The position numbers and the translations under genes were made by a program. The notes beneath the pieces were generated by a model that was not told where the DNA came from, searched no databases, and worked only from the letters and a program-made list of their open reading frames with translations. This document shows, piece by piece, positions 1 through 34,427 of a stretch of 64,000 nt of DNA. The stretch is from an uncultured Bacillota bacterium (GTDB lineage Bacteria > Bacillota_I > Bacilli_A > RF39 > UBA660), in assembly GCA_947165005.1 (NCBI GenBank), contig CAMUYN010000003.1, positions 25,584 through 89,583 on the forward strand, given 5' to 3'. Within the stretch, counting starts at the first letter, position 1; each line of letters opens with the position of its first letter.

Positions 1-3000
1 CAAATGTTGAATAACCTGAATAAATTTTAAAGTTATCGAAATGATTCTCTGTTGTAGTAATTTCAAATGTTGTGTCTTTAACATTTAATGTTCCATATCT
101 ACTATATATTCCTTCATCCTCAAAATTATAAAAATGTGAATTTTCTATTGTAAGACTTCCATTGTTTTCACCAACAAAATATGAATAACTATCTAAATTC
201 TTAATTATAGTAGTACCAGAATTATCTACTATTTTAGATGCAGTTGGTGTTCCACTATTATATGTTTGGCCATTATTATATACACCGCCATAAATATTAG
301 TTGTTCCACCAGAAACTGTTCTAATTGATGCATTTGCATTAGCTGCTCCATTATTTTCACAGTGAATCCATGGTGCATCAAATAAACTATCTGTACTTTG
401 ATCATTATCATTATTTAAATCAACAATATTAAGAATATTTCTATTGATTATTACATGTGCATTTATATTATGTAAATATGCTCCATTTAAGATATCAACA
501 GTACCACTATTATCGATTAAAGTAGATCCTGTAGATGATGTAATAATTCCTTCATCCTTTACAACCAATGTAGAATTACTATTATTCTTAAATAATAATA
601 TTCCATGATTAGTAGATACTTTTGCATCTATCAAATTAATAGTTCCATTATTATCAAATGCAGTAGTTCCAGATATTGCAATTATTTCACCAGTATTTCC
701 ATTACTACTATCTATAATAGTTAACTCACCATTATTTACAAATAACTTATCATTTGATTGTCTAATTGTTTTTCCATTTAAATCAAATGTAACAATATTA
801 CTAACAACAGCTGCTTCATCAATTGTTAAGTTATTATAATCATTTATCATTTGAAGTGTATCACCAGAATTTGCTTCATCAAATGCACTCTTTAAATCAT
901 AATATTTCTTTTCTATTCCAACTGATTGAGTAACATTTTTAATAACATATACTTTATCTAGGTAATTTGTCTTATAATCATCAGATGTACCAGATATTCT
1001 TCCATATCCAACTTCAAGATTAGTTATAGTTCCATAAGTAGGATCTGTTTTACCCATTAATATTCCATCATAGAAATTAATAGTACTACTTGAATTATAA
1101 ACACCATATGTAGTTCCTTTAATAATAGGATATGTCTTAGAAACAGCACCATCTATTTCTATTGATTCTCCTAAATTAAATGTTGAACTAGATAAGTAAA
1201 TAGCTCTTCCATTATCAGATATTATAGAACTATTCTTTTTAACATCCACACGTGATGAATATGAATTAATTGCTGCATTATTAAATGCCTCTATAGTAGA
1301 ATTTTCTATAATTAATAATCCTCTATTTTCTATTACTTCTCCACTACCTCTATTATAAAGATATGAACCCGAAATATTAATAGAATTATCATTATTAGAA
1401 TTATATTTATTTCTAATTAGGTGAGAATTCTTAACACCATATAAATCATCATTATCAGTACGATATCCTGAACCATTTGCTGTTCTATCAATAGTTGTAT
1501 TAGTAATACTAATATTTCCACCATTATTTTCTACAAATGAAGCTTTTATTTCAAATGTTGAATCACTAATAGTTAAACTACCAGTATTAATTAAGTTAGG
1601 ATGTAATCCTGATGTTCCACCAGTATTAAGATTAATAATATTTTCCATAGTTACATCATCTAAAGTTAATGTTCCTTGGTTTAATCCTATATGTGAATTA
1701 TCAGAAACAATTCCAGAAATAGTTGCAGTACCATAGTTATATATTAATTCACCCTTACTTGCTGTAGAATAATCTCTCCATGAACTATCATTATCTCGCC
1801 ATGTCCTACTAGCTATTCCATCATATGTACCACCAGAAACATTTAATGTTCCTAGAGAATTATTTACAAATATGGATGATGAATAAATATAATCAGCATT
1901 ATCTATAGTTCCTCTACGATATGCACTTTCTATAAATGAACTATTTGAATAGAAAGTACCATTCGTAATTATTGCAACTCCACTATTATTAACAATAGTA
2001 CCTGAATTTGTTTGTCTATAACCTAATTTATCATAATACTTAGTAAATACTCCACCAGAAATATTAAGATTTGAATTATTCAAAACAACTTCAGACTCTG
2101 TAGAACCAGCTTCCGAAACATAAGTACCACTTAATATATTTAAAGTTCCATTATTTACAAATATATTACCTGTTGTAGAATCAATCTTACCAACAATATT
2201 TGAATTAGTACTATCAATAGTATCTAATTCACCATTGATAATAAACATAGTATTATTATTGTTATCGATTATATTATTATTAATATCAAATGTAATCTTT
2301 AATCCACTTGGAATTGTAATTGGATTTTCAGATCTTGTTATTGTTATATTTCTTAATGCTTGAATAACATCATTATTATTTATAGTTCCATTAGATAAAT
2401 CAGTATTTAATTCATCTACTGAAGTATAAGATTTTCCTTGAGTAATATTTCTAAATACAGGTTCACTAGTTAAATATTTAGATTCAATATCACCAACACT
2501 ATCATAATCTCTATGTATTGAGTATCCATTTTCTACATTATCAATTGAAACATTGTATGCTTTTTGTCCACTAACTATTCCATCATAGAAATTAACTAAC
2601 AATGCTGGATTTGATGTATAAATACCATAAGATTTACCATTAATTATTGGTTTAGTATTTTCTTTAGAATCAACATTTCCATCATGAATACCTAAATTAA
2701 TTATTCCACTTCCAGAATTATTAATAGCAATATCATTAGACACATTGATAGTTCCACCTTCTATATTAGTTATACCTGTTGCACTTATATTTAATTTAGA
2801 ATTAATTGTTCCATTTTCAATTATCAATGAATACTGATTATTAGTATTATCTATTATCTTTCCTGAGCCACTAATTGTAAATGAATTTGAATAAGTACCA
2901 CTCTTTATTCTTAGAAGACCAGGGCTATTTAATGATCCTGATGGTAAAGTATTACTTTCCAATGTTAATATTCCTTCATTATATATTCTTTCAAATGTAG

Positions 3001-6000
3001 TAGTCATATTCTTAATAGTAGCAGTTCCACTACTATTTAAGAAATAATTTTCAATACCACCAGATACACTATAACTATTACCATCTAATGTAACTGTACC
3101 ACTTGTAAAGTTATAAACGAAATATTTTCCAGCAGATGATGTAACATTAGAATCTTTTACTGTTAGTGTTCCTTTATTATTAAACATGTTATTAGTATAC
3201 CAAAGATTAAATATACTTTCATTTGCAATAATAGTACCACTTTCTGTATTTGTAATAGCAACCTTATTGCTAACATTATTGTCATTACCAAAATCAAATT
3301 TGACTTTATCTAAAGTAACTACACCATTATTATTTTCTAAAATACTAATAGAATAATCATAGTTTCCAATATAAAGTTTACTTACTGTTAATGTCCCTTC
3401 ATTATATATATATTTATCACCATAATAACTATTCTTTCTTAATGAATTAGTACTATCAGTAATAGTTAAATTTCCTTGGTTATTAAATAAATATTTATCA
3501 GAATAAGATTTAACAATATGTCCATTATAATCAATTGTTACTGCTTTAGTATCAGAAATATTAATAGTATTTTGTTGATTTATATCAACAAGTAAATCAA
3601 TTTCATCTCCATTATTAGCAGCATCAACAGCATTCTGAATAGTTGTATATTTAGAATTATTAATTTGTGCGACATATGATTCTTCACCATCAGCTACTGG
3701 TCTTGAATTAGCATTAGAGACTAGAATAATCTTTTCTTTAGAATTATCAATTGATTTATAAATATCATATCCTTCTGGAACATTTTCTATATCGGAATTA
3801 ATTGCTGTATTCGCACTTATTGTTCCATCATAGAAATTAAATCTTCCAGAACCAACTATACCATAATTTGTACTTGAAATAGTTGGAGTATTAGACACTA
3901 CTGTAGATGAACCATTCAATAATGTTATTTTAGCATGACCATTACCAACATTTCCTTTTACTAATCCTGATGTAGAATAGTCTGGCATTTCTTCATTTCC
4001 AGTTTTCATTATTATATTTGATAAATTACTAGAAACATATGATGATCCACCGGTATATGATGATCCACCATAATATCCTCCACCACTATTTCTATCTCCA
4101 TAACCAAGAGTAGTTGAAGTTGTTTGATAGCCACCATAACAATTATCTGTATAATAACAAGATCCTCCACCACCAGCAACTATGATTCTTTGTTCATATG
4201 ATTCTGTACTTCTTCTAGAAGATACAACACCATTATCATAATACCAAGTATTATCTTCACTAGATAGAGAAATATCAGTAGCTCCTCCACCAGTTCCTGG
4301 TACAGTCCAATCATTATAGTATCCAGTTGTTGCTCCTCCACCATTATATGCACCATAATATGATCTTAATGCATTCCAGTATGTTCCAGATGAACCATGA
4401 CCACCAACATGGATATACAATTTATCTCCTTTATTTAGAGTAATTGTTCCTGAAGCATAAGCTCCAAATCCACCTCTATAGATTGATTTATATCCACTAC
4501 TCCATCCATTTGCATCGGATGCGGCGGCTCCCCAAGTTTCAAGTTTATAAGTTCCTGTTTGTGGTGCAGTAAATACTTCTTGTGCACCAGTATACCCAAA
4601 TTCATATTCTGTATCTACATTCTTTTCATCAGAACCAATTGTTACAACACCATTATTATTAATAGCAGTACCAAAGCTTGAATCAATATATGTATTACCA
4701 GTTATATTTAAATAAGGAGTAACATAATTCTTAGTATTATTAAATACTGTGGATTTAGCTCCATTAACATTATTAAATCTTGTATTATATACAGTCATAT
4801 AATAATCATTATCTACTATATCCTTATTAGAAGTAGCTGTAGAGTTTACTATTGAATTCTTCAATAATAATTTAGAAACATATTCTATTCCACCTCTACT
4901 GTAATTACCATCTTCATTAAATATAATAGTTCCTGAACCAGTAAGAGTCGAATCATTTATAACTGCTTCTCCTCTATTATTAATATAGTTTAAAGTAGAT
5001 GAATTAATAGAAACATTACCAAAACTATTATAAAGTGTTGTTAAACTCGAATTATTTATAGATACCATTCTTGGAGATGATTCTAATGAAACTGAACCAT
5101 ATAAACTAGATGAATTTATTGTAAATCTAAGTGGGAATGCCTGTGGTGTGAAATAAATTGAATCATTTCCAGTTGATGAAATATTAGAGTTACTAATAAT
5201 TGTATTTCCAGTAGCATATTCTCTAAATCCTTCTCCAGCACCAGTTACATTAATATTTGTATAAGTAACATCAGCAACAGCTTCATTTCTTATACCCTTG
5301 GCATCAGTTGGTGTTGTTACAACTTTTATACCAGAAATACTTGGATCATTACTTCTATTATAAAGTCCTGTAGAGTTATTTCCTATAGCATTAATAACAC
5401 CACTAGATGAAACTATATCACCATTTGTTTCGTTATAAATACCAATAGTTCCAGCATTATTAGCATTGATAATTGCACCTTCACCAATTATTAATTTTCC
5501 TCTGTTTACAATACCATATTTAGAATTAATGTTAATATTAATAGCCCCACTGGATAAATTTAATGTAGCATGTTCTTCATTTAATAAAATACTAGATGTA
5601 GTAGATGTAATAGTTCCATTAACTGCTTCAGAAACTATATTATTATATGATACTTCTGAATCTATATCTATATTATCTACATCAACTGAACTATCGAAAT
5701 CTACTTCACTTAAATAATCTTTAAATACAGGTAATGTTTTAACATTATATGTTTTAGGTAAATTTTTTTTCATTTCTTCAAGTTCTTCATCAGTAATGTC
5801 AAATGTAATCTTTGCATAACCATCATTTGCTTTTGCACATTTACTAACTGGATCAGAACTAAATCCATTAGGACAATTTTCACTATCTATATATTCAGTA
5901 GAACCCTTAGTACTAATTGTAAATATGTCTTTATCATTATTCACATCAGTAGCTTCCGTACAGTAATAACAATACATTGCTTTGTTATCAAGTGATTGAT

Positions 6001-9000
6001 TTCCGATATAACCGGAACCTCCTCCACCACCTGTACAGTAGTTAGTACCAGCAGCTCCTCCACCGTAGTAGCCTCCTCCTCCAGCACCACCTAAGTATCT
6101 GCTAGAAATATCACTTTCAGTTTGACCACCTTGTCCAAATGAACCTTTTCCAAGTGAAGGATTATATTTATAATATCCGCCTGAAGACTGAGTTCCACCA
6201 GTTCCATATCTATTGCTTTCAGTAGTACCACCATTGTTTCCAACGTATCCACCGGCAGAACCACCAGCTCCATATTCACCATAATCCCAGCGTGAAGATC
6301 CTCCTCCACCACCAGCAACTATAAGAATTGAACTTTGATCACTCTCTAATTCTGAAAGAATACCCTGAGAAGTAGCAATGTGAGTTGCTCCTCCACCAGA
6401 ACCAGAATCAAATTGTGAACCATTTCCGTGATATAAGACAGCATTACCACCACCGTTATATCCACCTTGTGCAGTTGTGTTGCTACCATGAACAGATTTA
6501 CCAGCACCACCTACATTAATATATAGTGTATCTCCCGCAGTTAATTCTACTGTACCTACAGAATAACCACCATATCCTCCGTAAATAGAGTTGCTATATG
6601 AACCACCTTGTGCACCCCATACTTCTAACTTGTATGTGCCTGTAAATCCTACATTAAATGTTTCTTCATGTCCACTATATGGAATTTCTTTTCTTAATGA
6701 ATTATCAATTATATATTCTTCACTTGGTTCACAATTTTCACATAAACCAGCGTATTCATTATACTCAGTTAAATCAGCAAGATACTTATTTTTTGCCTCA
6801 TTATATAATCTTGCTTGTTCTGTTTTATAATTGATATTTCTCTTTCTATTTTCTTCAAATTTTCCATCAATTATCTTTAAATTACCATTATTTTTAATTA
6901 CATAATCATTCTTATTAGATGTTAATGTAAATCCATTTAAATCCAATATTACTTCTTTTTCTTCTGGAACCTCAATAGCTGAATCAAGTGTAATTTGTTT
7001 TAATATTTCAATTGTGTCTACTTCTTGATTTAATACTGGATTATCAAAATATATTTCACTAATTGTCGAATAATTATTTGCATTAATTGAATATGCATCT
7101 TCTAAAGAATTACAATACCTAATTTCTTTAATAAAGAATTTATCTGATTCAGTATTATATGAACCACTCTTAGTATATAAGAAATGGACATAATTAACTT
7201 TATTCTTTTGTAATCTTAAAATTCCAGTTTGATTTTCTTTTACACCGCTAACATAGATTTCTCTTCCAGATGTTCCTGATGGAACTGATGTAGAATCAGT
7301 TACATAGACTGAACCATAATTATATGAATGAGAACTAATTGTTGCATTTACATATAAATATTTATCTTCATTAACATTAGTTAAATCATACATTATATAA
7401 GAATGTGCTGTTGAATTAGCAACTCCTGCATTATTACTTATAAATGAAGCTTCAGTAGGAATCTTAGAATTACTTCCATCCAGATTAAGAATTATATTAT
7501 CTGGATTATTTATTTCTTCTGGAGTTATTTCCTTATTATATACTTTTATATTATATATAGTACCATTCCAATAGTTACCATTACTTCCTGCTCTACCAAT
7601 ATATGCATTAGTAGTAGCTCCAGTTATTCGCCATGTACCGCCTTTTGTTAATTTAGTACCATCATAATATACTTCATAATTTCCTTCTTTATATGTAGTT
7701 AATATACTATGTTTACTACCATTATTAAAGTTTGATGGTCTATTATACCATGCAGCATCACTACCTACTCCATTAGATACTTGAATTCTTCCATCAGATA
7801 ATCCAACTACTATCCTCTCTCTAGAAGATCCCATATAAATAACCATATTATTAGTACTAGTTGTTGAGAATTCTGTATATACTGATTCTTCATAATTATT
7901 TAAATTATAATTAGATGTATCTACATATCCATAATCATTATTACCATCAAATAATAAACCTGTACTCTGTGAATTTAATATTGGTCCATTTAATATAGCA
8001 TTATTATGATTTGATGAAGAATCTTTCCAAGTAAATAAATCATAATCAATATTATTGAAATAATATGTATCATTATTATTATGTAATAATGTGCTTTGAG
8101 ATAATATATTTTCACCTTTAGCATTAGTTAAAGCCACATTATTAATTGTGAATGTATCATCTCCACCATGATTACCATTATAATTATAATAGCAGAAATG
8201 AACATAATTAAGTTCTCCTGGTGTTAAAGAAATAGTATAAGTTCTATTTGATACAACACCATACATATCAAACTTCTTAATAGATGATGCTGAATCATAA
8301 TTTAAGAAATTTTCATTATTTGAAACATAAACATATCCATGATCATTATTATTTAAACTTGAGATACTTGCATTTACAAGTATATTAAAGCCTTCAGTTT
8401 GGTCTCTTAAATCATATATTATATAAGAATGTGCATAAGTGCCTCCAAGGAAAGGATTAGTACTCTTATAAGAACCATCATCTTGTCTTTCAAACGAATA
8501 TCTATTAGTATCATTAAGTAATGCAAAATCACTTGTTTCTTGTCTTTCACCAAGTATATTAAAATTAGATATTTTAAATATTTCTATAGGGTTAATGTCC
8601 CCTCCACCTTTAACAAATCCAAAGTATAAATAATATGCTTTACCTTTAGTTAACTTGTATATTTTATTACCATTAATATCATTACCTGTACTTCTATATA
8701 TTTGAGTACCTGTACTACTTAATGTTTCACTAATTGATATATAACCATAAGAATCAGAATTATATGTATCGGCAAATGTAGTAAATGTTAAGAATTTATC
8801 TTCTTCTTCATCAGTTAAATCTAATTTTAGATATGATATAGCTGTTGTATTAGAAGTTGAATTATTACCATTAACAATAGTTTCATTTACTGCATCATAG
8901 ATAAATCCATAATCACCATATTGTTTTATCTTAGATAACATTTTTTCTTTTTCTTCTTCAAATGTTCCTGAATTTGAAGAATCAAATGCATTATCTACAC

Positions 9001-12000
9001 CACTATCTTTTAATTTTGCATAATATGTACTCTTAATTCTTGCCTGTGGATCAGTTACCCTAGCAAGTTTTGCGACATTTTTATAATTTTCTGTAATAAA
9101 TATTACGTTATATGAATATTGTGTAATAGCGTCAGCACCATTATTAATTAATGCAAGTGTATCTGCTACTAATTTACCATCATAGAAATGAAATTCATCG
9201 TTTTGTTCAAGTGCTGCTGTCTTTCCTTCTATAATAGGTCTATCCATCTCTGGATTAATAAATGTATCACTAACTTCAGAACTTCCCTCACCTAAAATAA
9301 ATGTACCATTATTAACGATTGCTTTATTAACAGTATTTTTTACTGTTCCAATAGTATTATCTGATCTAGGATTTCTATCAACAATCTGTAGTTTTCCATT
9401 ATTTACAAATGTTGCAGAAGCATCACTTGTAATACCTCTTCCATCTAAATCTATTGTTATATCTTGGTCAGCTGCAACTATGATATTTTCATTAACAACT
9501 GGAATAGTTGGATTTGTTTGAATTGTACATTGTACATTAGCGCAATAATTAACTGCACTTTGTATACTATCAAATAGTAAGAATTCTCTTCCTTGATCAA
9601 CCACAATTTCTTTAGTATCAGAATCAACTGTATACCATAGTATTCCATTCTTTCCTACTACTCTAGCTATATATGGATTAGTTCTTACCTCTACTTCTCT
9701 TTCTGAAACATTACCAACATAGTCTTCTGCTACTATTTTAACAATATATTCTGTATCTTGTTCTACACCATAGAATGTATGATCATAGTTTTCTGCATGA
9801 TCCTTAACTCCATCAAATATAGGTGATTCATAAGTTAAATTTTCATCATATATTAATGCTGATTTTTCTCTAGCATATAAAGTAAATTTCTTAACTCCTG
9901 ATCCTGCATCTTGAGCAGTTCCACTGACAGTCATATTAAATGACGCAGCTCCTGTTCCAGGATTATTAATAGTTGGACTAATAGTATCAACATTAACTAT
10001 AGTTTCATTAGTATCAGTACTATAAATATTACTCTTCTTAGAAACTGCTGTTATAGTTTCATTTGAATATACTTTAAATGGTTCTGTATATAAAGTAAGT
10101 GCACCATCACCAATCTTATAATATAATTCATATTCATTATGTTCACTTGATAATGTTACTAAGACACCGCAATTTTCTGTAGATGAATTACCACAAACCC
10201 AAGTTTTATTAGTTTCATTATCTAAACTTGGAGTTATTTCTATCATTGGAGATATAACTTCTTCATAAACAGCATATAAATTTTTGTCTTCAGTAATTAA
10301 AGTATTAAAATCATATTCATTTATTCCATCTTCTGACCAATATAAGAATATATGATGTCCTTTTGTTGGAATTGAAGAAGGAATTGTAGCTTTACTATTC
10401 CAATTCACGTCCTCGGTAGTAAATAATGCAGATTCATTATAGAAATTAACATCATACTTACTTATCTCATAGTGAGCCACCAAATGTTTGTTTCCTGTAG
10501 ATCCTGTTGGAATTCCCGTAACAATAACATTATCAATTGTATAATTTATAAATTCGTATCCTTCCTTACTAGGATTATTTAATAGTATATCTGGAGTTTC
10601 AATATTATATGTAGATGGATTTGTTTTTCCATCATCTAAACTACCACCATCATAATCATAAGTAAGATTATAAGTAATTGGTTCATAATTAGCTGTATAA
10701 CTTCTATGTCCTGTAGATCCTGTTGGAATTGTAACAACTAAATTAGTATTTCCAACTAAATCTGTACCTTCCCATCCAATAAAATTATAACCAACTTTTG
10801 ATGGATTATTTAGTGTTATACTAGCACTATCAACAGAATACTTAGTTGGATTATCTTGTTCTACTTTTCCATTATTTAATGTATACGAAATAGTGTATTC
10901 TATCTTTTCAAAATTAGCTGTATAATTTCTATTTCCAGTACTACCTTTTAATACTATTACTGAAGTAGATTTATTAGCAATATCCGTTCCACTCCATCCA
11001 AGGAAATTATATCCTTCTCTTTGTGGATTGCTTATTGAGAATGTTGCTGTTTCTACATCATATGTAGTTGGATTATTTAGCGCTACCATCTCAGCTTGTG
11101 TTAATCCAGAATAATTAATACTATATGTTATTTTTTCAAAATTAGCTACATAGCTTCTATTTCCAGAGCTACCTTTTGGAATTGTTACTTCTGTTGATGT
11201 CCCTGTTATTCCTGTTCCACTCCATCCAGTAAAATTATAACCAGGTTTTGATGGATTATTTAGTGTAAATGTTTCTGTTTTTCTCATATATGTAGATGGA
11301 TTTGTTTTACCAGGTTCATATACTCCATCATTTAAGTTATATGTAATATTATAAACATCTTCATTATCATGCCATTCAGCAGTATATTCTCTATCTCCTA
11401 TACTTCCTTTTGGAATACTTACATTTATTGATATATTTCCATTTCCATCATTCCATCCAGCAAAATCTTCTATACTTAAGCCTTGTCCATCTTTTCTAGA
11501 AGCCGGAATATTTAACGTAAATGTATCTGTCTCAACATTATATGTTGTTGGATTTTTTAATAAGTTTCTTTCTTCAGTAGTTATTCCTTCATAAGATATG
11601 TTATATGTAATAGGGGTATAGTGTGCCACATAGTTTCGTACTCCTGCACTTCCTTTAGGTATTGTTACTGTCGTTGATGTTCCAGTTATTCCTGTTCCGC
11701 TCCAGCCAGCAAATGTATAACCAGGTTTTGATGGATTATTTAATGTAAATGTGGTTGTACTTCTCTTATATGAACTTGGATTTGGTTCTCCTAAAGTTCC
11801 ACCATCAAGATCATATGCAATTGGATAACTATCTTGGTTTTCATGCCATTCAGCTGTATATGTCTTATTTCCTATACTTCCTTTTGGAATACTTACATTT
11901 ATTGATATATTTCCATTTCCATCATTCCATCCAGCAAAGTCTTCTAAATTAAGCCCTTGTCCATCTTTTCTAGAAGCCGGAATATTTAACGTAAACGTAT

Positions 12001-15000
12001 CTGTCTCAACATTATATGTTGTTGGATTTTTTAATAAGTCTCTTTCTTCAGTAGTTATTCCGCTATAAGTAATATTATAAGTTATTGCTTCATAATTAGC
12101 AGTATATGTTCTATTACCTGAGCTTCCTTTAGATATTGTTACTTCTGTTGATGTTCCAGTTATTCCTGTCCCACTCCAACCAGTAAAATTATATCCTGGT
12201 TTTGATGGATTATTTAATGTAAATGTGGCCGTACTTCTCTTATATGAATTTGGATTTGTTTTACCAGGTTCAAGTGCTCCACCATCAAGATCATAAGTGA
12301 TTGAATAATCATTTTGATTTTCGTGCCATACAGCTGTATATGTCTTATTTCCTATACTTCCTTTTGGAATACTTACATTTGTTGATGTATTTCCATTTCC
12401 ATCATTCCATCCAAGGAAATCTTCTGAATCATTGCCATGTTCATCTTTTCTTGTACTTGGAATATTTAATGTAAATGTATCTGTCTCAACATTATATGTT
12501 GTTGGATTTTTTAATAAATTTCTTTCTTCAGTAGTTATTCCTTCATAAGATATGTTATATGTAATAGGGGTATAATGTGCTACATAGTTTCTTACTCCCG
12601 CACTACCTTTAGATATTGTTACTACTAGTGATGTTCCATCAATTTCTGTTCCACTCCATCCAGCAAATGCATAACCAGGTTTTGATGGATTATTTAATGT
12701 AAATGTGGCTGTACTTCTCTTATATGAACTTGGATTTGTCTTTCCAGGTTCAAGTGCTCCGCCATCAAGATCATATGTAATTAAATAGCTATCTTGGTTT
12801 TCGTGCCATTCAGCAGTATATGTTCTATTTCCTATACTTCCTTTTGGAATACTTACATTTATTGATATATTTCCATTTCCATCGTTCCATCCAAGAAAAT
12901 CTTCTAAATTATTACCATGTTCATCTTTTCTTGTACTTGGTTCATTTAATGTAATAGTTTCTGACTCAATATTATATGTTGTTGGATTATTTAATAAATT
13001 TCTTTCTTCAGTAGTTATTCCTTCATAAGTTATATTATATGTAATTGGGGTATAGTGAGCTACATAGTTTCTTACTCCTGCACTACCTTTAGATATTGTT
13101 ACTATTTCTTCTGTTCCAGTTATTCCTGTCCCACTCCATCCGGCAAATTCATATCCTTCTTTTGATGGATTATTTAATGTAAATGTCTCTGTGCTTCTCT
13201 TATATGAAGTTGGATTTGTCTTTCCAAGTTCAAGTGCTCCACCATCAAGATCATACGTGATTAAATAACTGTCTTGATTTTCTCCCCATACAGCAGTATA
13301 TGTTCTATCATCTATACTTCCTTTTTCAATTGTTACATTGATTGATGTATTTCCATTTCCATCATTCCATCCAAGGAAATCTAGTAAATTATTACCATGT
13401 TCATCTTTTCTTGGATCAGGATTATTTAACTTAAATGTATTTGTTTCAACATTATATGTAGTAGGATTATTTAATAAGTTTCTCTCTTCTTCTGTTATTT
13501 CATTATAAAGAATATTATAAGTATTAATTTCATAAGCAGCTGTTAGTGTTGCATCTTCGTCATTAAATGTAAATGTATTATTTAGGAATACTCCACCGCC
13601 AGTTTTATCATATCTTATAAAACTATAACCTCTTTTTACTGATTCTGCTATTTGTCTTATAGTTCCATAATCTTCTTCATATGTAACAACAGATGCATTA
13701 TCTAAATATGTTCCTCCATTTGGATCAATTGATAATGTAGATTTTTTTATCGCATAGCAAGCAGTATATTCTCTATCTCCAACACTACCTTTTTTAATTT
13801 GTAAATTTAATGTTTCTTCAGTTAAATCTGTTCCTACCCAACCGATAAATGTATATCCCTCTTTACTAGGATTATTCAATGTGAATTCATCACTTACAGT
13901 ATAAGTACTTGGATTATCTTCAGGTAAAGTACCACCATCTAAATTATACTCAATGTTATATGTATTAATTTTATACTTTGCATATAAAGTTAAATCTTCC
14001 TGTACATTTTCATCGTTATAACATGTTCCATTTGCTTCATAACATTTAAATGTATATCCCTTATAAGTAGGAGCATCAATTATATCGATAGCATTTCCTT
14101 CTTCAACTTCTTTTGTACCTATTATAATTTCTTCCCCAGTATTAGGATTTCTATCAATAAATGTTATTGTATATTTATTATTTTTAATTTTTCCAAATAA
14201 TACTATATCCTTAGTAACAGTATTATCAAAATTATATTTATTTGTATATTCTTTATCGGTATACCAACCATCAAAATCTTCTATTCCTGGATTAATATTT
14301 TCAATCTTTTCTAGCGAAGATACATATTCTTCTCTAAATATTTTATTATTTAAATAATAAGCAACATATTTATAGTCTTCTCCACTAGTAATAGCGGTAT
14401 TAATATAATTTCTTGCTTCATTAGTTTTTACTATATCTAAAACTAAACTAGCACTTGTTTTTTCATACGCACCCAATTCTTTATCTTCAATTGCTGTATA
14501 GAATAAATATTTTCCATCTTTCTTCCATCCTGGGTTTTTATTTTCATCAAACGAAAGACCATCTGGAATAATATCCTTTAATACAGTTAATGTACCTTTA
14601 ACTTCACCAGTATTTTTTATATTGATTTTATAATAAATAGATCCCTCAATTGTTTTTGCATTCTTAACAGATCTAACTACTTTAGGTTCTTCGTCATATT
14701 CAAACGTTTCTTTTTTGCCATTTACAATTAAATCTAATTTACTAATAGATTTTTTTATTTCTGCATTAAATGGTTCTACTTCTCTAACAACTATATTTAA
14801 TATTCTTCTATTTTCATCAGTTGTTTCTTCTGTATACCTAACTACTTGATATTTTTCTTCCTCAAGTTTTACTTCATATGTATCTACATCCCCTAAACTA
14901 AATGTATATTCACCATTTTCTTTTGTATAAGTTCTTTTTATCTCTTTATCATCCTTTGATAAACTAAGTTCAAGTCCTTTATACATAGTTCCAGTTTCAT

Positions 15001-15523
15001 CAAAAACTTTTCCTTCAACACTTCTTCCTGTTATTACTACAGGATCTACATTTATTTTTGATTTAGATTCATCTTCACTATTGATTTTAAATTCTGGAGT
15101 AATAGCCACACCATATGGAGCATTTTCTACTACAACAGTTATTACTGGATTATTCTTAGTAGTTGTTATTGTAATGTTTCTTCCATTATTGCTAACAACA
15201 GAATCTTTTATTTCTTTAAATCTTGCATATTTATTTTCACTATTAGTTAAACTTCCAGTTATTACTGCAACATCTTCACTTAATTTATTAATTTTTAATT
15301 TATATTTTATTTCATCATAGTTATTAGAAGAAACGCCGTCATCAACTCCATCTATAACAGAAGCATTTAATGATGTTGTTTTAGATAATACATTTTTTAT
15401 GTTTATTTTTTTAACAGAAGGATTTAGAATTGTAAATAATCCCGCAACAAAAACTAATAGCATTGCTATTATTAGTAAAGTAGTATATTTTTTTGTTTTG
15501 AGATTTCTTAGTTTATGATTCAT
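1..15523 (-). CDS. Giant (>5170 aa) secreted surface protein, 5' end at 15523, 3' end beyond window start; signal peptide, CnaB-like domain, >=12 Listeria-Bacteroides (Flg_new) repeats, LamG-like domain, two ALK-type glycine-rich domains, parallel beta-helix repeats
   Basis: ATG at 15523-15521 with GGAAGG RBS 9 nt upstream. N-terminus MNHKLRNLKTKKYTTLLIIAMLLVFVAGLF is a signal peptide. The frame has no stop through position 1: the ORF track shows no long minus-strand ORF with a stop in 1-15523, and I hand-translated the 5' kilobases, ~9480-9420, ~7620-7560, ~6300-6180 and the last 120 nt without meeting a stop. 480-bp tandem repeats between ~10500 and 13500 carry Flg_new motifs (e.g. TYNIEYNLDGGTL...EGYTFIGW). 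TGTYKLEVWGAQGG and YKLETWGAA glycine-rich modules lie at ~6650-5900 and ~4700-4300. N/S/T/G-rich beta-helix-like repeats fill 1-4200. Confidence 0.8.
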   Translation of the reverse strand, partial: MNHKLRNLKTKKYTTLLIIAMLLVFVAGLFTILNPSVKKINIKNVLSKTTSLNASVIDGVDDGVSSNNYDEIKYKLKINKLSEDVAVITGSLTNSENKYARFKEIKDSVVSNNGRNITITTTKNNPVITVVVENAPYGVAITPEFKINSEDESKSKINVDPVVITGRSVEGKVFDETGTMYKGLELSLSKDDKEIKRTYTKENGEYTFSLGDVDTYEVKLEEEKYQVVRYTEETTDENRRILNIVVREVEPFNAEIKKSISKLDLIVNGKKETFEYDEEPKVVRSVKNAKTIEGSIYYKINIKNTGEVKGTLTVLKDIIPDGLSFDENKNPGWKKDGKYLFYTAIEDKELGAYEKTSASLVLDIVKTNEARNYINTAITSGEDYKYVAYYLNNKIFREEYVSSLEKIENINPGIEDFDGWYTDKEYTNKYNFDNTVTKDIVLFGKIKNNKYTITFIDRNPNTGEEIIIGTKEVEEGNAIDIIDAPTYKGYTFKCYEANGTCYNDENVQEDLTLYAKYKINTYNIEYNLDGGTLPEDNPSTYTVSDEFTLNNPSKEGYTFIGWVGTDLTEETLNLQIKKGSVGDREYTACYAIKKSTLSIDPNGGTYLDNASVVTYEEDYGTIRQIAESVKRGYSFIRYDKTGGGVFLNNTFTFNDEDATLTAAYEINTYNILYNEITEEERNLLNNPTTYNVETNTFKLNNPDPRKDEHGNNLLDFLGWNDGNGNTSINVTIEKGSIDDRTYTAVWGENQDSYLITYDLDGGALELGKTNPTSYKRSTETFTLNNPSKEGYEFAGWSGTGITGTEEIVTISKGSAGVRNYVAHYTPITYNITYEGITTEERNLLNNPTTYNIESETITLNEPSTRKDEHGNNLEDFLGWNDGNGNISINVSIPKGSIGNRTYTAEWHENQDSYLITYDLDGGALEPGKTNPSSYKRSTATFTLNNPSKPGYAFAGWSGTEIDGTSLVVTISKGSAGVRNYVAHYTPITYNISYEGITTEERNLLKNPTTYNVETDTFTLNIPSTRKDEHGNDSEDFLGWNDGNGNTSTNVSIPKGSIGNKTYTAVWHENQNDYSITYDLDGGALEPGKTNPNSYKRSTATFTLNNPSKPGYNFTGWSGTGITGTSTEVTISKGSSGNRTYTANYEAITYNITYSGITTEERDLLKNPTTYNVETDTFTLNIPASRKDGQGLNLEDFAGWNDGNGNISINVSIPKGSIGNKTYTAEWHENQDSYPIAYDLDGGTLGEPNPSSYKRSTTTFTLNNPSKPGYTFAGWSGTGITGTSTTVTIPKGSAGVRNYVAHYTPITYNISYEGITTEERNLLKNPTTYNVETDTFTLNIPASRKDGQGLSIEDFAGWNDGNGNISINVSIPKGSIGDREYTAEWHDNEDVYNITYNLNDGVYEPGKTNPSTYMRKTETFTLNNPSKPGYNFTGWSGTGITGTSTEVTIPKGSSGNRSYVANFEKITYSINYSGLTQAEMVALNNPTTYDVETATFSISNPQREGYNFLGWSGTDIANKSTSVIVLKGSTGNRNYTANFEKIEYTISYTLNNGKVEQDNPTKYSVDSASITLNNPSKVGYNFIGWEGTDLVGNTNLVVTIPTGSTGHRSYTANYEPITYNLTYDYDGGSLDDGKTNPSTYNIETPDILLNNPSKEGYEFINYTIDNVIVTGIPTGSTGNKHLVAHYEISKYDVNFYNESALFTTEDVNWNSKATIPSSIPTKGHHIFLYWSEDGINEYDFNTLITEDKNLYAVYEEVISPMIEITPSLDNETNKTWVCGNSSTENCGVLVTLSSEHNEYELYYKIGDGALTLYTEPFKVYSNETITAVSKKSNIYSTDTNETIVNVDTISPTINNPGTGAASFNMTVSGTAQDAGSGVKKFTLYAREKSALIYDENLTYESPIFDGVKDHAENYDHTFYGVEQDTEYIVKIVAEDYVGNVSEREVEVRTNPYIARVVGKNGILWYTVDSDTKEIVVDQGREFLLFDSIQSAVNYCANVQCTIQTNPTIPVVNENIIVAADQDITIDLDGRGITSDASATFVNNGKLQIVDRNPRSDNTIGTVKNTVNKAIVNNGTFILGEGSSEVSDTFINPEMDRPIIEGKTAALEQNDEFHFYDGKLVADTLALINNGADAITQYSYNVIFITENYKNVAKLARVTDPQARIKSTYYAKLKDSGVDNAFDSSNSGTFEEEKEKMLSKIKQYGDYGFIYDAVNETIVNGNNSTSNTTAISYLKLDLTDEEEDKFLTFTTFADTYNSDSYGYISISETLSSTGTQIYRSTGNDINGNKIYKLTKGKAYYLYFGFVKGGGDINPIEIFKISNFNILGERQETSDFALLNDTNRYSFERQDDGSYKSTNPFLGGTYAHSYIIYDLRDQTEGFNILVNASISSLNNNDHGYVYVSNNENFLNYDSASSIKKFDMYGVVSNRTYTISLTPGELNYVHFCYYNYNGNHGGDDTFTINNVALTNAKGENILSQSTLLHNNNDTYYFNNIDYDLFTWKDSSSNHNNAILNGPILNSQSTGLLFDGNNDYGYVDTSNYNLNNYEESVYTEFSTTSTNNMVIYMGSSRERIVVGLSDGRIQVSNGVGSDAAWYNRPSNFNNGSKHSILTTYKEGNYEVYYDGTKLTKGGTWRITGATTNAYIGRAGSNGNYWNGTIYNIKVYNKEITPEEINNPDNIILNLDGSNSKIPTEASFISNNAGVANSTAHSYIMYDLTNVNEDKYLYVNATISSHSYNYGSVYVTDSTSVPSGTSGREIYVSGVKENQTGILRLQKNKVNYVHFLYTKSGSYNTESDKFFIKEIRYCNSLEDAYSINANNYSTISEIYFDNPVLNQEVDTIEILKQITLDSAIEVPEEKEVILDLNGFTLTSNKNDYVIKNNGNLKIIDGKFEENRKRNINYKTEQARLYNEAKNKYLADLTEYNEYAGLCENCEPSEEYIIDNSLRKEIPYSGHEETFNVGFTGTYKLEVWGAQGGSYSNSIYGGYGGYSVGTVELTAGDTLYINVGGAGKSVHGSNTTAQGGYNGGGNAVLYHGNGSQFDSGSGGGATHIATSQGILSELESDQSSILIVAGGGGGSSRWDYGEYGAGGSAGGYVGNNGGTTESNRYGTGGTQSSGGYYKYNPSLGKGSFGQGGQTESDISSRYLGGAGGGGYYGGGAAGTNYCTGGGGGSGYIGNQSLDNKAMYCYYCTEATDVNNDKDIFTISTKGSTEYIDSENCPNGFSSDPVSKCAKANDGYAKITFDITDEELEEMKKNLPKTYNVKTLPVFKDYLSEVDFDSSVDVDNIDIDSEVSYNNIVSEAVNGTITSTTSSILLNEEHATLNLSSGAINININSKYGIVNRGKLIIGEGAIINANNAGTIGIYNETNGDIVSSSGVINAIGNNSTGLYNRSNDPSISGIKVVTTPTDAKGIRNEAVADVTYTNINVTGAGEGFREYATGNTIISNSNISSTGNDSIYFTPQAFPLRFTINSSSLYGSVSLESSPRMVSINNSSLTTLYNSFGNVSINSSTLNYINNRGEAVINDSTLTGSGTIIFNEDGNYSRGGIEYVSKLLLKNSIVNSTATSNKDIVDNDYYMTVYNTRFNNVNGAKSTVFNNTKNYVTPYLNITGNTYIDSSFGTAINNNGVVTIGSDEKNVDTEYEFGYTGAQEVFTAPQTGTYKLETWGAAASDANGWSSGYKSIYRGGFGAYASGTITLNKGDKLYIHVGGHGSSGTYWNALRSYYGAYNGGGATTGYYNDWTVPGTGGGATDISLSSEDNTWYYDNGVVSSRRSTESYEQRIIVAGGGGSCYYTDNCYGGYQTTSTTLGYGDRNSGGGYYGGSSYTGGSSYVSSNLSNIIMKTGNEEMPDYSTSGLVKGNVGNGHAKITLLNGSSTVVSNTPTISSTNYGIVGSGRFNFYDGTISANTAINSDIENVPEGYDIYKSIDNSKEKIILVSNANSRPVADGEESYVAQINNSKYTTIQNAVDAANNGDEIDLLVDINQQNTINISDTKAVTIDYNGHIVKSYSDKYLFNNQGNLTITDSTNSLRKNSYYGDKYIYNEGTLTVSKLYIGNYDYSISILENNNGVVTLDKVKFDFGNDNNVSNKVAITNTESGTIIANESIFNLWYTNNMFNNKGTLTVKDSNVTSSAGKYFVYNFTSGTVTLDGNSYSVSGGIENYFLNSSGTATIKNMTTTFERIYNEGILTLESNTLPSGSLNSPGLLRIKSGTYSNSFTISGSGKIIDNTNNQYSLIIENGTINSKLNISATGITNIEGGTINVSNDIAINNSGSGIINLGIHDGNVDSKENTKPIINGKSYGIYTSNPALLVNFYDGIVSGQKAYNVSIDNVENGYSIHRDYDSVGDIESKYLTSEPVFRNITQGKSYTSVDELNTDLSNGTINNNDVIQALRNITITRSENPITIPSGLKITFDINNNIIDNNNNTMFIINGELDTIDSTNSNIVGKIDSTTGNIFVNNGTLNILSGTYVSEAGSTESEVVLNNSNLNISGGVFTKYYDKLGYRQTNSGTIVNNSGVAIITNGTFYSNSSFIESAYRRGTIDNADYIYSSSIFVNNSLGTLNVSGGTYDGIASRTWRDNDSSWRDYSTASKGELIYNYGTATISGIVSDNSHIGLNQGTLTLDDVTMENIINLNTGGTSGLHPNLINTGSLTISDSTFEIKASFVENNGGNISITNTTIDRTANGSGYRTDNDDLYGVKNSHLIRNKYNSNNDNSINISGSYLYNRGSGEVIENRGLLIIENSTIEAFNNAAINSYSSRVDVKKNSSIISDNGRAIYLSSSTFNLGESIEIDGAVSKTYPIIKGTTYGVYNSSSTINFYDGILMGKTDPTYGTITNLEVGYGRISGTSDDYKTNYLDKVYVIKNVTQSVGIEKKYYDLKSAFDEANSGDTLQMINDYNNLTIDEAAVVSNIVTFDLNGKTIRQSNDKLFVNNGELTIIDSSNGNTGEIIAISGTTAFDNNGTINLIDAKVSTNHGILLFKNNSNSTLVVKDEGIITSSTGSTLIDNSGTVDILNGAYLHNINAHVIINRNILNIVDLNNDNDQSTDSLFDAPWIHCENNGAANANASIRTVSGGTTNIYGGVYNNGQTYNSGTPTASKIVDNSGTTIIKNLDSYSYFVGENNGSLTIENSHFYNFEDEGIYSRYGTLNVKDTTFEITTTENHFDNFKIYSGYSTF

Positions 15524-15660
15524 CTACTTAACCTTCCATTATTATATAATATAATTATATAATAAATGTACTATTTTAATCAACAAAAATAGACTATTTT
15601 TTTATAAAAAAGGCATGTTTTTTTTAATATGGTATAATTAAATTGTAGGGAGGTAAAAAA

Positions 15661-17360: not shown

Positions 17361-17933
17361 TTACTCCTTAAAACCTAAAAACTTTTTTAATCCCTCTGCA
17401 TTTTTTAAATCTTCTTTACTCATTCCAAAAGCACCAGGAGACACTAGTTTAACATACTTATCAAGAAATTCATCAAAAGATCCATCAAAATAATCCTGTG
17501 GAATAAAAAAAGTTCTTGAACCTCCAGTTACTCTATCCCCCGCCTGAACAAATGCTGAATATCCACCATAAAAATGTTTATTAAATTCATATCTTTCTAG
17601 ATACCAACCATGTAACATAGTACCACAAGAAATAGGTACTTTAAATGTTTTATATTTTGGATTTTTGCTTTGAATTGAATATTCGTGCATATCTTTAATA
17701 TAATCGTAAAAGTCACTATCAGATTTAATCCACGTTAATACTTTTCTAAGTATTTCTCCATCATAATTATGGTAATAAGATACAAATTCATAAACTCCAC
17801 CAACTTTTTCTATCTTATATTCATACTTATCATCAAGCATATCCTCAGTAGCCCAAGGATATGAATCAAATATAATCTCTTTAGCTTTTTCTAGATACTT
17901 ATTTATATCATACTTATATGGAAATTTACTCAT
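17361..17933 (-). CDS. Hypothetical protein (190 aa)
   Basis: ORF in an operon-like array with the deaminase; no recognisable motif. Confidence 0.5.
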   Translation of the reverse strand: MSKFPYKYDINKYLEKAKEIIFDSYPWATEDMLDDKYEYKIEKVGGVYEFVSYYHNYDGEILRKVLTWIKSDSDFYDYIKDMHEYSIQSKNPKYKTFKVPISCGTMLHGWYLERYEFNKHFYGGYSAFVQAGDRVTGGSRTFFIPQDYFDGSFDEFLDKYVKLVSPGAFGMSKEDLKNAEGLKKFLGFKE

Positions 17934-17941
17934 AATTACTC

Positions 17942-18607
17942 CTAATACTTTTTTGTTTCTGAATAACCTAGTATTATTTGATATTTACTATCCATTTTTT
18001 TAATTTTATTCTCTGTTATTAATTCTTTTTCTTTACCCATCTCTACATCAGATGCATCAGGATTCATTTTTGCTTCATCAAATTTATTTCTTAATTCAAA
18101 TTCCTCTAATAAATTTATAAAACGAATCTGTCTTTTTCTACTCCAAGGCACTACTGCATAATTAGATAATAAAATGCTTCTTGGCGTATTAAAACTGCTT
18201 AATAAATCGTATGTCTTTTCTATTGTTCCAAACTCAGTCTTTACTTCAAATGAAGGATCATCTTCCGGTACAAAATATGCATTTTTCTTTAAAACTGCTT
18301 CACCTTTCAATCTAGTTTCACAATATAAAGTAGCTTTATGTAATTCTATTTCATCATTAAAGCATAATCCTTCAGCATAAATTATCATACCTGTTTTAGT
18401 ATTTATTAAGATTGCTTCTATCCCTTTAAGATTAATAGTAATTTTATGATCACCTGCTGAAAGATAACTATCACCTTCAAAATCTTCTAAATATGCTTCT
18501 TCAAAACCTTGATTATTACACCATGTTAAAAAATCTTGCCATGACATAAAACTATATGGCAAATTATAAGATTTTCTTCTTTCATTTTCATAATCTAATC
18601 TATCCAT
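17942..18607 (-). CDS. Hypothetical protein (221 aa)
   Basis: ORF with AGGAG RBS and an upstream extended -10 TGGTATAAT; no recognisable motif. Confidence 0.5.
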   Translation of the reverse strand: MDRLDYENERRKSYNLPYSFMSWQDFLTWCNNQGFEEAYLEDFEGDSYLSAGDHKITINLKGIEAILINTKTGMIIYAEGLCFNDEIELHKATLYCETRLKGEAVLKKNAYFVPEDDPSFEVKTEFGTIEKTYDLLSSFNTPRSILLSNYAVVPWSRKRQIRFINLLEEFELRNKFDEAKMNPDASDVEMGKEKELITENKIKKMDSKYQIILGYSETKKY

Positions 18608-19503: not shown

Positions 19504-20550
19504 TTAGAATGGTAATTTTCCTTCATAAACATAAATCCAAGAATAATTGTTACTTATATTAGTTAAATCATTATTAAGATTTACTTTTACCAAATCATCT
19601 TTTATTTGTTCAAATTGTTTATGTGATATAGTCTTCTCTATTATTTTATCTTCTCTAACTTCAAGTATTCCCATACCTGCCCAAAAGTCTACCATTGAAG
19701 ATGAATTAGAAGCAAGGTGTAGCCAAGCTTCTCCCCCAGCTCCTAGACCAAAAGATCCAAGAAGTGGTATAAGATTATCTTTTTCAAAATATTCTTTTCC
19801 TCTAAGTTCATAATCTATATCTAAAAATGCTTCATTTAATGTTCTAGAATTATATATAAATTTTTTTCTATCTTTGTCTGGTAAATTTGTTAAATCTTCC
19901 TTACCATTCCACATAATATTAGTCTCGGCTCTTTTAAGTCTAATTTCTTTTTCTTCTTCAGGAAGAGCATCAAATCTTGCTTTTACCTCAGGTAAGTATT
20001 CATTCATTTTTTTTAGTAGTTCATCCCTATCATAGAAATCTCTAGCTAGAACTATACTTAAATCAATAGGATAATTTACTTTACCATTAATATAATTAAT
20101 TAAATCTTTAAATGCTTTATTATATTTATCCATACCTTCTTGCGGCGTGTTATTCATATATGTTAATGCTACTTCTTCAGATTCAAATTCTATCTTAGTT
20201 CTTTTATCTTGAGTTTTTGCGATTGGTAAAACATATTCCATTAAATATTTAATTGTAAATATTTCTGCCCAGTCTGGTTCTGGATAAGTTGGAGCCCAAA
20301 AGTGTTTATATCCACCAAAGCAGAAACAAAATAGAAATTCTAAATTATTATTCAATATATTATCAACTTTTTCTTCAGTATATTTTTTAGCATCTTCAAA
20401 CTGTGCTTTACGAGACCATTTTCTTGAGAATAATCTATTTAATATACTATCTTTTAAATCTTTTCCTTCTAAAGGATTAGTTTCTATATTATTAAAATTT
20501 AATAATTCATTATTAATGTAATTATTAACTCTAGTTTCTAAATCGTTCAT
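19504..20550 (-). CDS. Hypothetical protein (348 aa) co-transcribed with pnuC
   Basis: ORF with AGGAG RBS. No motif recognised (contains FGGYKHFWAPTYPEPDW). Confidence 0.5.
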   Translation of the reverse strand: MNDLETRVNNYINNELLNFNNIETNPLEGKDLKDSILNRLFSRKWSRKAQFEDAKKYTEEKVDNILNNNLEFLFCFCFGGYKHFWAPTYPEPDWAEIFTIKYLMEYVLPIAKTQDKRTKIEFESEEVALTYMNNTPQEGMDKYNKAFKDLINYINGKVNYPIDLSIVLARDFYDRDELLKKMNEYLPEVKARFDALPEEEKEIRLKRAETNIMWNGKEDLTNLPDKDRKKFIYNSRTLNEAFLDIDYELRGKEYFEKDNLIPLLGSFGLGAGGEAWLHLASNSSSMVDFWAGMGILEVREDKIIEKTISHKQFEQIKDDLVKVNLNNDLTNISNNYSWIYVYEGKLPF

Positions 20551-33317: not shown

Positions 33318-33401
33318 CAATTATAATATTCGCAGTAAATATAGCAAATTCCCCCTATTTTTTGTTATTTTTTTATAGTATAATTTTATTAGGTGATAAT
33401 T

Positions 33402-34427
33402 ATGAAAAAAATATCAATAAATATGTTATCTTCAGCCGATAAAGTTAAAGGTCAAGGAGTTGGTTCTGCATACTTAGAACTAATAAAATTATTAAGAGAA
33501 GATGGAAAAGAATACTTTGATATATATATTAACAAAGGATCAAAATATGATATATTACATGCACATACAATAGATCCGATAAATTATATTAAATTAAAAT
33601 TTACTAAAGGGAAAAAAGTTATATATGTACACTTCTTACCAACAACATTAGATGGATCTATTAAACTTCCTAAATTATTTTTTAACATATTTAAATGGTA
33701 TGTAATCAAATTTTATAAACTAGCAGATAAATTAGTAGTAGTTAATCCAATATTTATCAAAGAAATGATAGAAAATGGATTAGATAAAGACAAAATAGTA
33801 TATATTCCTAACTTTGTATCAAAGGAAGAATTCTATAGTCTAGATAATAAAGAAAAAATAAATATAAGAAAAAAATATGGTTATACTGAAAAAGATTTCA
33901 TAGTTATGGGTGCTGGTCAAGTACAAACAAGAAAAGGTGTTATGGATTTTGTTGAAGTAGCAAAAAAAATGCCAGATATAAAATTTATCTGGGCTGGTGG
34001 ATTTAGTTTTGGAGCTATTACTGATGGACATGAAGAATTAAAAAAAGTTATGGATAATCCACCAGAAAACGTTAATTTTTTAGGAATAGTTGAAAGAAAA
34101 AATATGAATGAATTATATAATATGTCTAATGTATTATTTGTTCCTTCCTACAACGAATTATTCCCAATGACAATATTAGAAAGTACAAATTGTCATGTGC
34201 CTTTATTACTAAGAAATTTAGATTTATATGAAGACATATTATTTAAAAAATATTTAAAAGGAAATAATAATAATGATTTTATAAAAGAATTAACTAAATT
34301 AAAAAACGATAAAAAAATATATAAAGAACAAATCAAAAATTCTAAATATATTAGTGATTTCTATACTAAAGATCATGTTCTTGAAATGTGGATAGATTTT
34401 TATACAAGCATAATAAAAGAGGATTAA
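33402..34427 (+). CDS. Glycosyltransferase family 4 (GT-B fold; diacylglycerol glucosyltransferase-like)
   Basis: C-terminal half carries the GT4 nucleotide-binding region (...FVPSYNELFPMTILEST...). AGGTGA RBS before the ATG at 33402; the ORF track's earlier start at 33393 lacks an RBS. Confidence 0.65.
   Translation: MKKISINMLSSADKVKGQGVGSAYLELIKLLREDGKEYFDIYINKGSKYDILHAHTIDPINYIKLKFTKGKKVIYVHFLPTTLDGSIKLPKLFFNIFKWYVIKFYKLADKLVVVNPIFIKEMIENGLDKDKIVYIPNFVSKEEFYSLDNKEKINIRKKYGYTEKDFIVMGAGQVQTRKGVMDFVEVAKKMPDIKFIWAGGFSFGAITDGHEELKKVMDNPPENVNFLGIVERKNMNELYNMSNVLFVPSYNELFPMTILESTNCHVPLLLRNLDLYEDILFKKYLKGNNNNDFIKELTKLKNDKKIYKEQIKNSKYISDFYTKDHVLEMWIDFYTSIIKED

Follow-up and report, generated by a model that had tools for sequence, protein, structure and literature searches.

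The extracellular glycine-rich domain (GRD) of the receptor kinases ALK and LTK has been solved, and it combines a TNF-like beta-sandwich with a lattice of glycine-rich extended segments in the polyglycine-II conformation (PMC13243192, PMC9608196). According to the titles of the PDB entries, this TG/GRD unit is the ligand-binding region of ALK. A similar combination is found in gp24 of cyanophage Pam3, where the TNF-like domain and the glycine-rich one were assigned host receptor recognition, the glycine motifs are conserved, the loops are variable, and a resemblance to C. elegans ALK was noted (PMC9608196). This phage protein is trimeric, with trimerisation mostly credited to an N-terminal helical bundle (PMC9608196). 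Here we describe two domains of the ALK/LTK type in a giant protein encoded on 64,000 nucleotides of DNA from an uncultured Bacillota bacterium (assembly GCA_947165005.1, contig CAMUYN010000003.1, positions 25,584 to 89,583), hereafter the window. The host is an uncultured, low-GC rumen/gut bacterium of the Bacilli. Its TypA shares 97% identity with that of a metagenome-assembled genome named 'Bacillales bacterium Tb.RUG.455', and ~80% with those of Clostridium sp. CAG:433 and of gut genomes labelled 'uncultured Bacilli/Tenericutes'. The features on which the analysis centers are the following; GRD boundaries were taken from profile hits and structure models.

2..15523, minus strand: giant open reading frame (ORF), open over at least 5174 residues, with its C-terminus past the window's left edge
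5801..6694, minus strand: GRD1, a full-length ALK/LTK-type glycine-rich domain (residues 2944-3241, 24% Gly), from PF12810, an AlphaFold2 model, PDB matches and a shuffle control
~3911..4615, minus strand: GRD2, a reduced, divergent glycine-rich domain (residues 3637-3871, 19% Gly), from PF12810, an AlphaFold2 model and a four-way alignment

Two PF12810 domains in one giant protein

The giant ORF was located by a six-frame scan of the window. In a Pfam-A scan, the family PF12810 (ALK_LTK_GRD), which has a gathering cut-off of 24.5 bits, scored 195.4 bits across the region with both GRDs. Taken alone, GRD1 scored 128.2 bits (E 7e-37; the match takes in 7-242 of the 243 profile positions) and GRD2 scored 89.8 bits in two stretches (E 3.6e-25). 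A first-pass annotation had proposed two ALK/LTK-type glycine-rich domains at this place and had named a PF12810 scan as the way to check them; both domains do belong to the family, each scoring far above its threshold, and the peptides that were quoted match exactly the minus-strand frame that opens at ATG 15523. The proposed span of 4300-6650 was right for GRD1, which reaches slightly past its upper edge to 6694, but too short on the left, where GRD2 runs ~390 nt further and its C-terminal half was cut off. Likewise, the word tandem fits the presence of two copies but not their spacing: the giant ORF holds two homologous PF12810 domains that lie 395 residues apart.

Because both the domains and the Pfam model are rich in glycine, the hits could be a compositional artefact in which low-complexity glycine sequence meets a glycine-rich hidden Markov model, and the HMMER bias terms were indeed large (43-67 bits). 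We therefore rely on an independent profile made from 82 homologues with the query excluded, using 300 residue shuffles of each domain as a control. With this profile, GRD1 scored 323.8 bits and GRD2 97.8 bits, while the top-scoring shuffles reached only -25.8 and -2.6 bits, respectively. Since shuffles of the same composition all fell below zero, the signal is not due to glycine composition. Motifs that include conserved non-glycine residues (YKLE.WGA, GD.LYI.VG, GGGATHIA and I.IVAGGGG) and confident structure models that match ALK/LTK exclusively also argue against an artefact, an explanation that the shuffle control refutes and to which we assign a negligible probability. When applied to all six frames of the window, the independent profile detected exactly two GRDs, both in the giant ORF. 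No DNA tandem repeats or alternative ORFs that would account for the GRD region were found.

The order of motifs shared with ALK is present in the region: Y-x-[LI]-x-x-x-G-A-x-GG, L-x-x-[GD]-D-x-LYI-x-VG, GGGAT, [LI]I-[VI]-A-GGGG and GGGG-Y-x-GG. These signature motifs correspond to invariant columns in an alignment of 83 homologues, and the four-way alignment indicates that GRD2 retains every one of them in weakened form. The two domains are thus members of PF12810 by score, by motifs and by nearest fold.

Predicted structures and the relationship to ALK and LTK

The AlphaFold2 model of GRD1, computed from the alignment of 82 homologues, has a mean predicted local distance difference test score (pLDDT) of 92.8 and a predicted template modelling score (pTM) of 0.91. 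Beta strands are located at both ends of the model, where they form the predicted sandwich. Between them, model residues 147-238 are glycine-rich and have almost no helix or strand assigned by DSSP, with pLDDT values of 86-98. The polyproline-II conformation is not labelled by DSSP, and a segment without DSSP structure that is nevertheless modelled with high pLDDT is as expected of an ordered polyglycine-II lattice. From this model, GRD1 may contain such a lattice. The GRD2 model has a mean pLDDT of 78.7 and a pTM of 0.79.

Both models were compared with the PDB using Foldseek, with hits at E <= 0.001 taken as significant. All 21 significant hits of the GRD1 model were extracellular TG/GRD chains of ALK or LTK (probability 1.00, E 3e-8 to 5e-5), and the same was true for 21 of 21 significant hits of the GRD2 model (probability 1.00, E 7.5e-10 to 6e-8). 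The comparison of predicted folds that the first-pass annotation had suggested therefore came out in its favor, the significant neighbors of both models being ALK/LTK chains only. Human ALK is also reached by sequence alone: a profile of the bacterial homologues detects it at E 8e-6 with a one-for-one alignment of the motifs, pairing tGtYkLEvWGAqGG with TDTYSISGYGAAGG, LkkgdklYinVG with LEKDDMLYILVG, GGGATHIA with GGGATYVF, and lIVaGGGGG with LIIAAGGGG. Such a profile search was needed to reach ALK, as phmmer searches of PDB sequences with the GRD region, the spacer between the GRDs and the C-terminal region returned nothing.

The window protein therefore shares with ALK and LTK the order of the signature motifs, and the Pfam family of both its GRDs is also that of the ligand-binding TG domain in human ALK, human LTK and SCD-2 of C. 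elegans (7LRZ, 7LS0, 7N00, 7NX1, 7NWZ, 7LIR). In other respects the proteins differ. Pfam detects no kinase, EGF-like, MAM or LDLa module in the 5174 residues of the giant ORF, and so neither the cytoplasmic tyrosine kinase domain nor the membrane-proximal EGF-like domain that follow the GRD in the receptor kinases. Its setting is a giant repeat protein of a bacterium, and relative to the ALK domain, GRD1 has a CxxC...C...C insert and GRD2 is shortened in its glycine-rich middle. The window protein is a domain homologue and not a receptor kinase. Nor is there any reason to expect the ALKAL/Augmentor cytokines as ligands in a rumen/gut bacterium.

A full-length and a reduced domain

Between GRD1 and GRD2, identity is ~39-41%. 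GRD2 lacks ~45 residues of the glycine-rich middle as well as the CxxC...C...C insert, and it has a conserved insert of its own (EDNTWYYDNG). In GRD1-type domains the cysteine insert is nearly invariant, with the consensus MYCYxCxES...C...CAKxGNGYARIT between the last strands, and may represent either a metal site or a pair of disulfides.

5834-5971, minus strand: CxxC...C...C insert of GRD1 (residues ~3185-3230), from the homologue alignment and conservation map

The two domains also have different sets of relatives. Close relatives of GRD2 in a set of 5.8 billion proteins were limited to the fragments P0121 and P0122 (56-59% identity), below which the search drops to generic GRDs at E 1e-17; an orthologue of the giant protein, described next, adds one more. 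GRD1 is of the full-length type that thousands of proteins of bacteria and phages contain, and GRD2 is a shortened, lineage-restricted type.

A search of metagenome contigs with the C-terminal 667 residues returned a single orthologue, L081 (Ga0265298_10005019), and the same query found no relative in genome contigs.

2-13570, plus strand of its own contig: L081 orthologue of the giant protein, 4523 residues, N-terminus cut by the contig end and C-terminus complete

L081 is colinear with the window protein and keeps the order GRD1-spacer-GRD2, with identities of 47% for GRD1, 48% for the spacer and 62% for GRD2. The four-way alignment gives the same 39-41% identity between GRD1 and GRD2 in both species, against 51% and 63% for the orthologous pairs, indicating that the duplication predates the split of the lineages. 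Judging from these identities, the duplication is an old one. The C-terminal end of L081 consists of LTLQTGTNKP, a hydrophobic segment and RKNKKREI, in this order, with no canonical LPXTG. This tail has the look of a membrane anchor or of a signal resembling a sorting signal.

Relatives in Bacilli and in phages

GRD relatives are abundant. HMMER was run exhaustively against 1.84 billion cluster representatives, of which 6088 matched at E <= 1e-3 and 2866 still matched at E <= 1e-10; where a source name was given for the relatives listed, they came from Bacilli metagenome-assembled genomes (MAGs) and phages. Many of the top relatives are Bacilli proteins of 2000-7663 residues with 2-9 matched GRD stretches, such as P0236 (NCBI MCR4581170.1, 'InlB B-repeat-containing protein [Bacilli bacterium]'), which has 4369 residues and 8 PF12810 domains. 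Like the window protein, these giants (P0236, P0239, P0241, P0244 and P0368; up to 7663 residues) combine Flg_new repeats with several GRDs and come from the same bacterial class. They differ from it in that overall identity is low (23-33%) and in that the visible part of the window protein has just two GRDs, one of them of the reduced GRD2 type. The window protein belongs with these giant multi-GRD InlB B-repeat proteins of uncultured Bacilli, which are already in the databases. The first-pass description of bacterial examples within giant adhesins as poorly characterised survives as regards function but not as regards architecture, which is common and already deposited; with this many representatives, the architecture cannot be called rare.

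Most other homologues are small proteins of Bacilli MAGs (350-580 residues, annotated by NCBI as 'glycine rich domain-containing protein') with a single GRD. In the examples P0011, P0103 and P0119 this GRD is 40-53% identical to GRD1, cysteine insert included, but it makes up a one-domain protein, often with a prepilin leader, instead of being part of a giant repeat protein as GRD1 is. Many of these small proteins carry the prepilin-type N-terminal cleavage/methylation signal PF07963 (P0010, P0011, P0019, P0044 and others, as well as L082 at 8001-9209 on the plus strand). With such N-termini, they would also be displayed outside the cell. The prepilin-GRD proteins resemble pilins with an ALK-type GRD as a head, and the N-terminus of the homologue profile matches the geopilin 9egp_A. 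At the one locus that was inspected, that of P0011, there is no pilus operon; the gene is isolated in a housekeeping setting, with a sortase gene nearby.

Viral relatives were found by several routes. GRD1 matches 61 predicted viral structures in BFVD with template modelling (TM) scores up to 0.62, including 'virion structural proteins' of Synechococcus phages and phage proteins automatically named 'receptor protein-tyrosine kinase', and three PHROG families that lack a functional assignment are matched as well (E 1e-29 to 1e-35). In the PDB, the GRD2 model matches the cyanophage Pam3 tail fibre 7ypx_A (E 2.6e-3, probability 0.99, TM 0.34), ranked after ALK/LTK. Salmonella phage S16 gp38 (6F45) has a polyglycine-rich receptor-binding fibre tip, and it was not among the structural hits.

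Layout of the giant protein

Translation of the giant ORF starts at ATG 15523. A ribosome-binding site (GGAAGG, 15532-15537) is located 8 nt upstream in the directly read start region, and further upstream, by consensus match only, there is a promoter-like TTGATT-18-TATAAT at 15583-15554. Genetic code 4 was considered for the window, which has a GC content of 26%, and was rejected, as the same long ORFs are obtained under table 11. Apart from the GRDs, the protein has the following parts.

15419..15523, minus strand: N-terminal basic segment and hydrophobic segment of ~20 residues (MNHKLRNLKTKKYTTLLIIAMLLVFVAGLFTILNPS), from the translation read by eye
10244..14206, minus strand: array of Flg_new / InlB B-repeats (Listeria-Bacteroides repeat; residues ~440-1760), PF09479 at 215 bits in 11 stretches and PF18998 at 86 bits
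7040-8881, minus strand: three copies of a ~135-residue module around Laminin_G_3 (residues 2215-2350, 2351-2491 and 2693-2828), from internal repeats
7508..7936, minus strand: Laminin_G_3 / ConA-like lectin domain (residues 2530-2672), PF13385 at 37 bits
4616..5800, minus strand: spacer between GRD1 and GRD2 (395 residues, 3242-3636), a short helix first and then N/S/G/T-rich repeats
2..3910, minus strand: C-terminal region of ~500-residue super-repeats, from residues ~3872-3880 through 5174 and beyond, from self-similarity

The N-terminal segment is a putative secretion signal or signal anchor. It is followed by ~20 Flg_new / InlB B-repeats, which form the stalk of the giant protein, and the Pfam scan also detected a CarboxypepD_reg-like domain. 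The three ~135-residue modules are 24-35% identical pairwise and have no match in Pfam or among PDB sequences. In self-comparison, the spacer repeats resemble the C-terminal repeat region (residues 4090-4750). The spacer itself, which matched nothing in Pfam, NCBIfam or PDB sequences, is probably a beta-solenoid. The super-repeats of the C-terminal region are likewise N/S/G/T-rich and have no Pfam, NCBIfam or PDB match; indeed, no NCBIfam model matches any part of the giant protein. The first-pass label of a giant surface protein agrees with the N-terminal hydrophobic signal or anchor, the Flg_new and Laminin_G_3 domains, and the apparent transmembrane segment and basic tail of L081. The giant protein is predicted to be secreted or membrane-anchored.

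Possible function of the glycine-rich domains

By analogy with the described systems, we think it probable that the GRDs are rigid scaffolds with ligand-binding variable loops, displayed on a giant multivalent adhesin. The invariant glycine motifs and core strands of each GRD would hold up the variable loops, and these loops would bind an external ligand, be it a glycan from the host or its diet, a protein, or a different cell. As a whole, the giant protein would serve as a multivalent adhesin, much as this fold is employed at the tips of phage tail fibres (Pam3 gp24 and S16 gp38) and in the ALK ectodomain. Across the 83 homologues, conservation is concentrated on the glycine motifs and the sandwich/core strands, and the intervening loops vary in both sequence and length. 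This pattern matches that of Pam3 gp24, which, together with the role of the same unit as the ligand-binding region of ALK, suggests a loop-binding role for the GRDs. That the domain recurs at surfaces or in virions, as part of giant repeat, pilin-like and virion proteins, points in the same direction. A putative export signal and a repeat array, as in the giant surface adhesins of Gram-positive bacteria with InlB B-repeat (Flg_new) stalks, are both present in the giant ORF, in the form of the basic and hydrophobic N-terminus and the PF09479 and PF18998 repeats.

In its mode of action, the window protein may be most like the polyglycine-rich receptor-binding tips of phages, although it is not a phage protein. 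Pam3 gp24 (7YPX) has a TNF-like sandwich and a glycine-rich lattice, as predicted for the GRDs, and it shares with them conserved glycine motifs and variable loops. On the other hand, neither an N-terminal trimerising helical shaft nor an adjacent chaperone is seen for the window protein, and its GRDs are internal to a chain of >5000 residues instead of lying at a C-terminal tip. Pam3 gp24 and S16 gp38 are also phage proteins, while the giant gene has a chromosomal context.

Several observations weigh against the adhesin reading. When the models are superimposed on ALK, TM scores are only 0.34-0.48, with rmsd values of 7-13 A and 15-19% identity. The resemblance to phage tips is uneven, with no phage fibre among the PDB hits of the GRD1 model and no match in a tblastn search of GenBank phages with GRD1, although the latter result is perhaps due to the low-complexity filter given that PHROGs and BFVD do match. 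The C-terminus of the giant ORF, and with it any anchor of this copy, is outside the window. Among the papers searched, we found none on the function of bacterial PF12810 proteins, and the binding role rests on analogy. Finally, GRD2 is better conserved between the orthologues than GRD1 (62% against 47%), which is as compatible with a structural function or a fixed ligand as with adhesion.

The last point leads to a distinctly less probable but serious alternative, in which the GRDs have a structural or assembly function only. On this view each would be a knot that adds rigidity or a point of oligomerisation, with the TNF-like sandwiches trimerising or self-associating, as in TNF and the Pam3 gp24 trimer, so as to stiffen or bundle the giant fibre or to build a surface lattice, with no external ligand. 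In Pam3 gp24 the TNF-like plus glycine-rich unit does sit within the body of a trimer (PMC9608196), and GRD2 is the best-conserved part of GRD1-spacer-GRD2 between the orthologues (62%). The invariance of the glycine motifs and the presence in related giants of 2-9 matched GRD stretches, with 8 PF12810 domains in one of them, are also reminiscent of structural repeats. However, the loops between the glycine motifs vary freely in sequence and length, which would be unusual for a purely structural repeat, and the homologues include hundreds of small proteins with a single GRD, in some cases behind a prepilin leader, in which there is no fibre to stiffen. A different possibility is that the region is a phage-derived receptor-binding module within a prophage or phage-like element, the ORF being akin to a tail fibre and not a bacterial adhesin. 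The strong matches to PHROG families and predicted viral structures would fit this, as would the match of GRD2 to the Pam3 tail fibre. Yet the genes around the giant ORF are ordinary chromosomal ones (epimerase, deaminase, RecG, PFOR, TypA, aminoacyl-tRNA synthetases and a T-box leader), indicating that the giant gene is not in a prophage; in place of a phage genome with tail genes or a chaperone there are housekeeping neighbors, and no phage genes were seen among them. Moreover, a putative secretion signal at the N-terminus and ~20 InlB B-repeats are present in the ORF, the orthologue L081 has an apparent C-terminal membrane anchor, and database annotation assigns the closest giant relatives to bacteria. 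A prophage origin was thus rejected on gene context, and we regard a phage-derived module of this kind as very improbable.

A more elaborate version of the binding hypothesis can also be put forward, as a speculation that we consider unlikely in its entirety. The two GRDs would be functionally distinct receptor-binding heads of phage-fibre-tip stock: GRD1 a fast-evolving, loop-variable 'specificity' head with a possibly metal- or disulfide-stabilised insert, and GRD2 a reduced, strongly conserved subtype with a fixed partner, confined to its lineage of giant proteins. Gut Bacilli and their phages would exchange the polyglycine-II module, and the metazoan ALK/LTK domain would be an offshoot of a larger prokaryotic and viral family.

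Other features of the window

Several features outside the giant gene were recorded along the way.

41680-42975 and 40200-41417, minus strand: two adjacent tyrosyl-tRNA-synthetase-like genes, each with tRNA-synt_1b and an SYY C-terminal domain
41450-41631: T-box leader RF00230 (99 bits), between these two genes
23291-25657, minus strand: protein of 788 residues between RecG and PFOR, in which WD40/beta-propeller repeats come after an N-terminal TIR domain (TIR_2, ThsB_TIR), a defence-like architecture
34424-36717, minus strand: protein of 384 residues with a weak S26 signal-peptidase match, adjoining a DUF5305 protein
33393-34427, plus strand: divergent glycosyltransferase gene near the S26/DUF5305 pair
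17361-17933, 17942-18607 and 19504-20550, minus strand: three ORFs without a Pfam match, upstream of the giant gene

Because the T-box leader lies between the two synthetase-like genes, only the downstream copy appears to be under T-box control. The three ORFs without a Pfam match are separated from the giant gene by the divergent epimerase and deaminase genes.

Significance

The presence of two GRDs in the giant ORF is what routine Pfam annotation reports, and similar architectures are already public; the find is correct and fairly ordinary. Its interest lies mainly in a widespread family without a known bacterial function, to which the reduced, lineage-restricted GRD2 adds a small curiosity. 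An oncogenic receptor of humans is where the ALK/LTK glycine-rich domain is most familiar, but bacteria and phages have the fold in much greater abundance and diversity. With a full-length and a reduced GRD in one chain and a colinear orthologue, the window protein offers a natural pair for studies of the polyglycine-II scaffold. It could also help explain how rumen/gut Bacilli with reduced genomes attach to their substrates.

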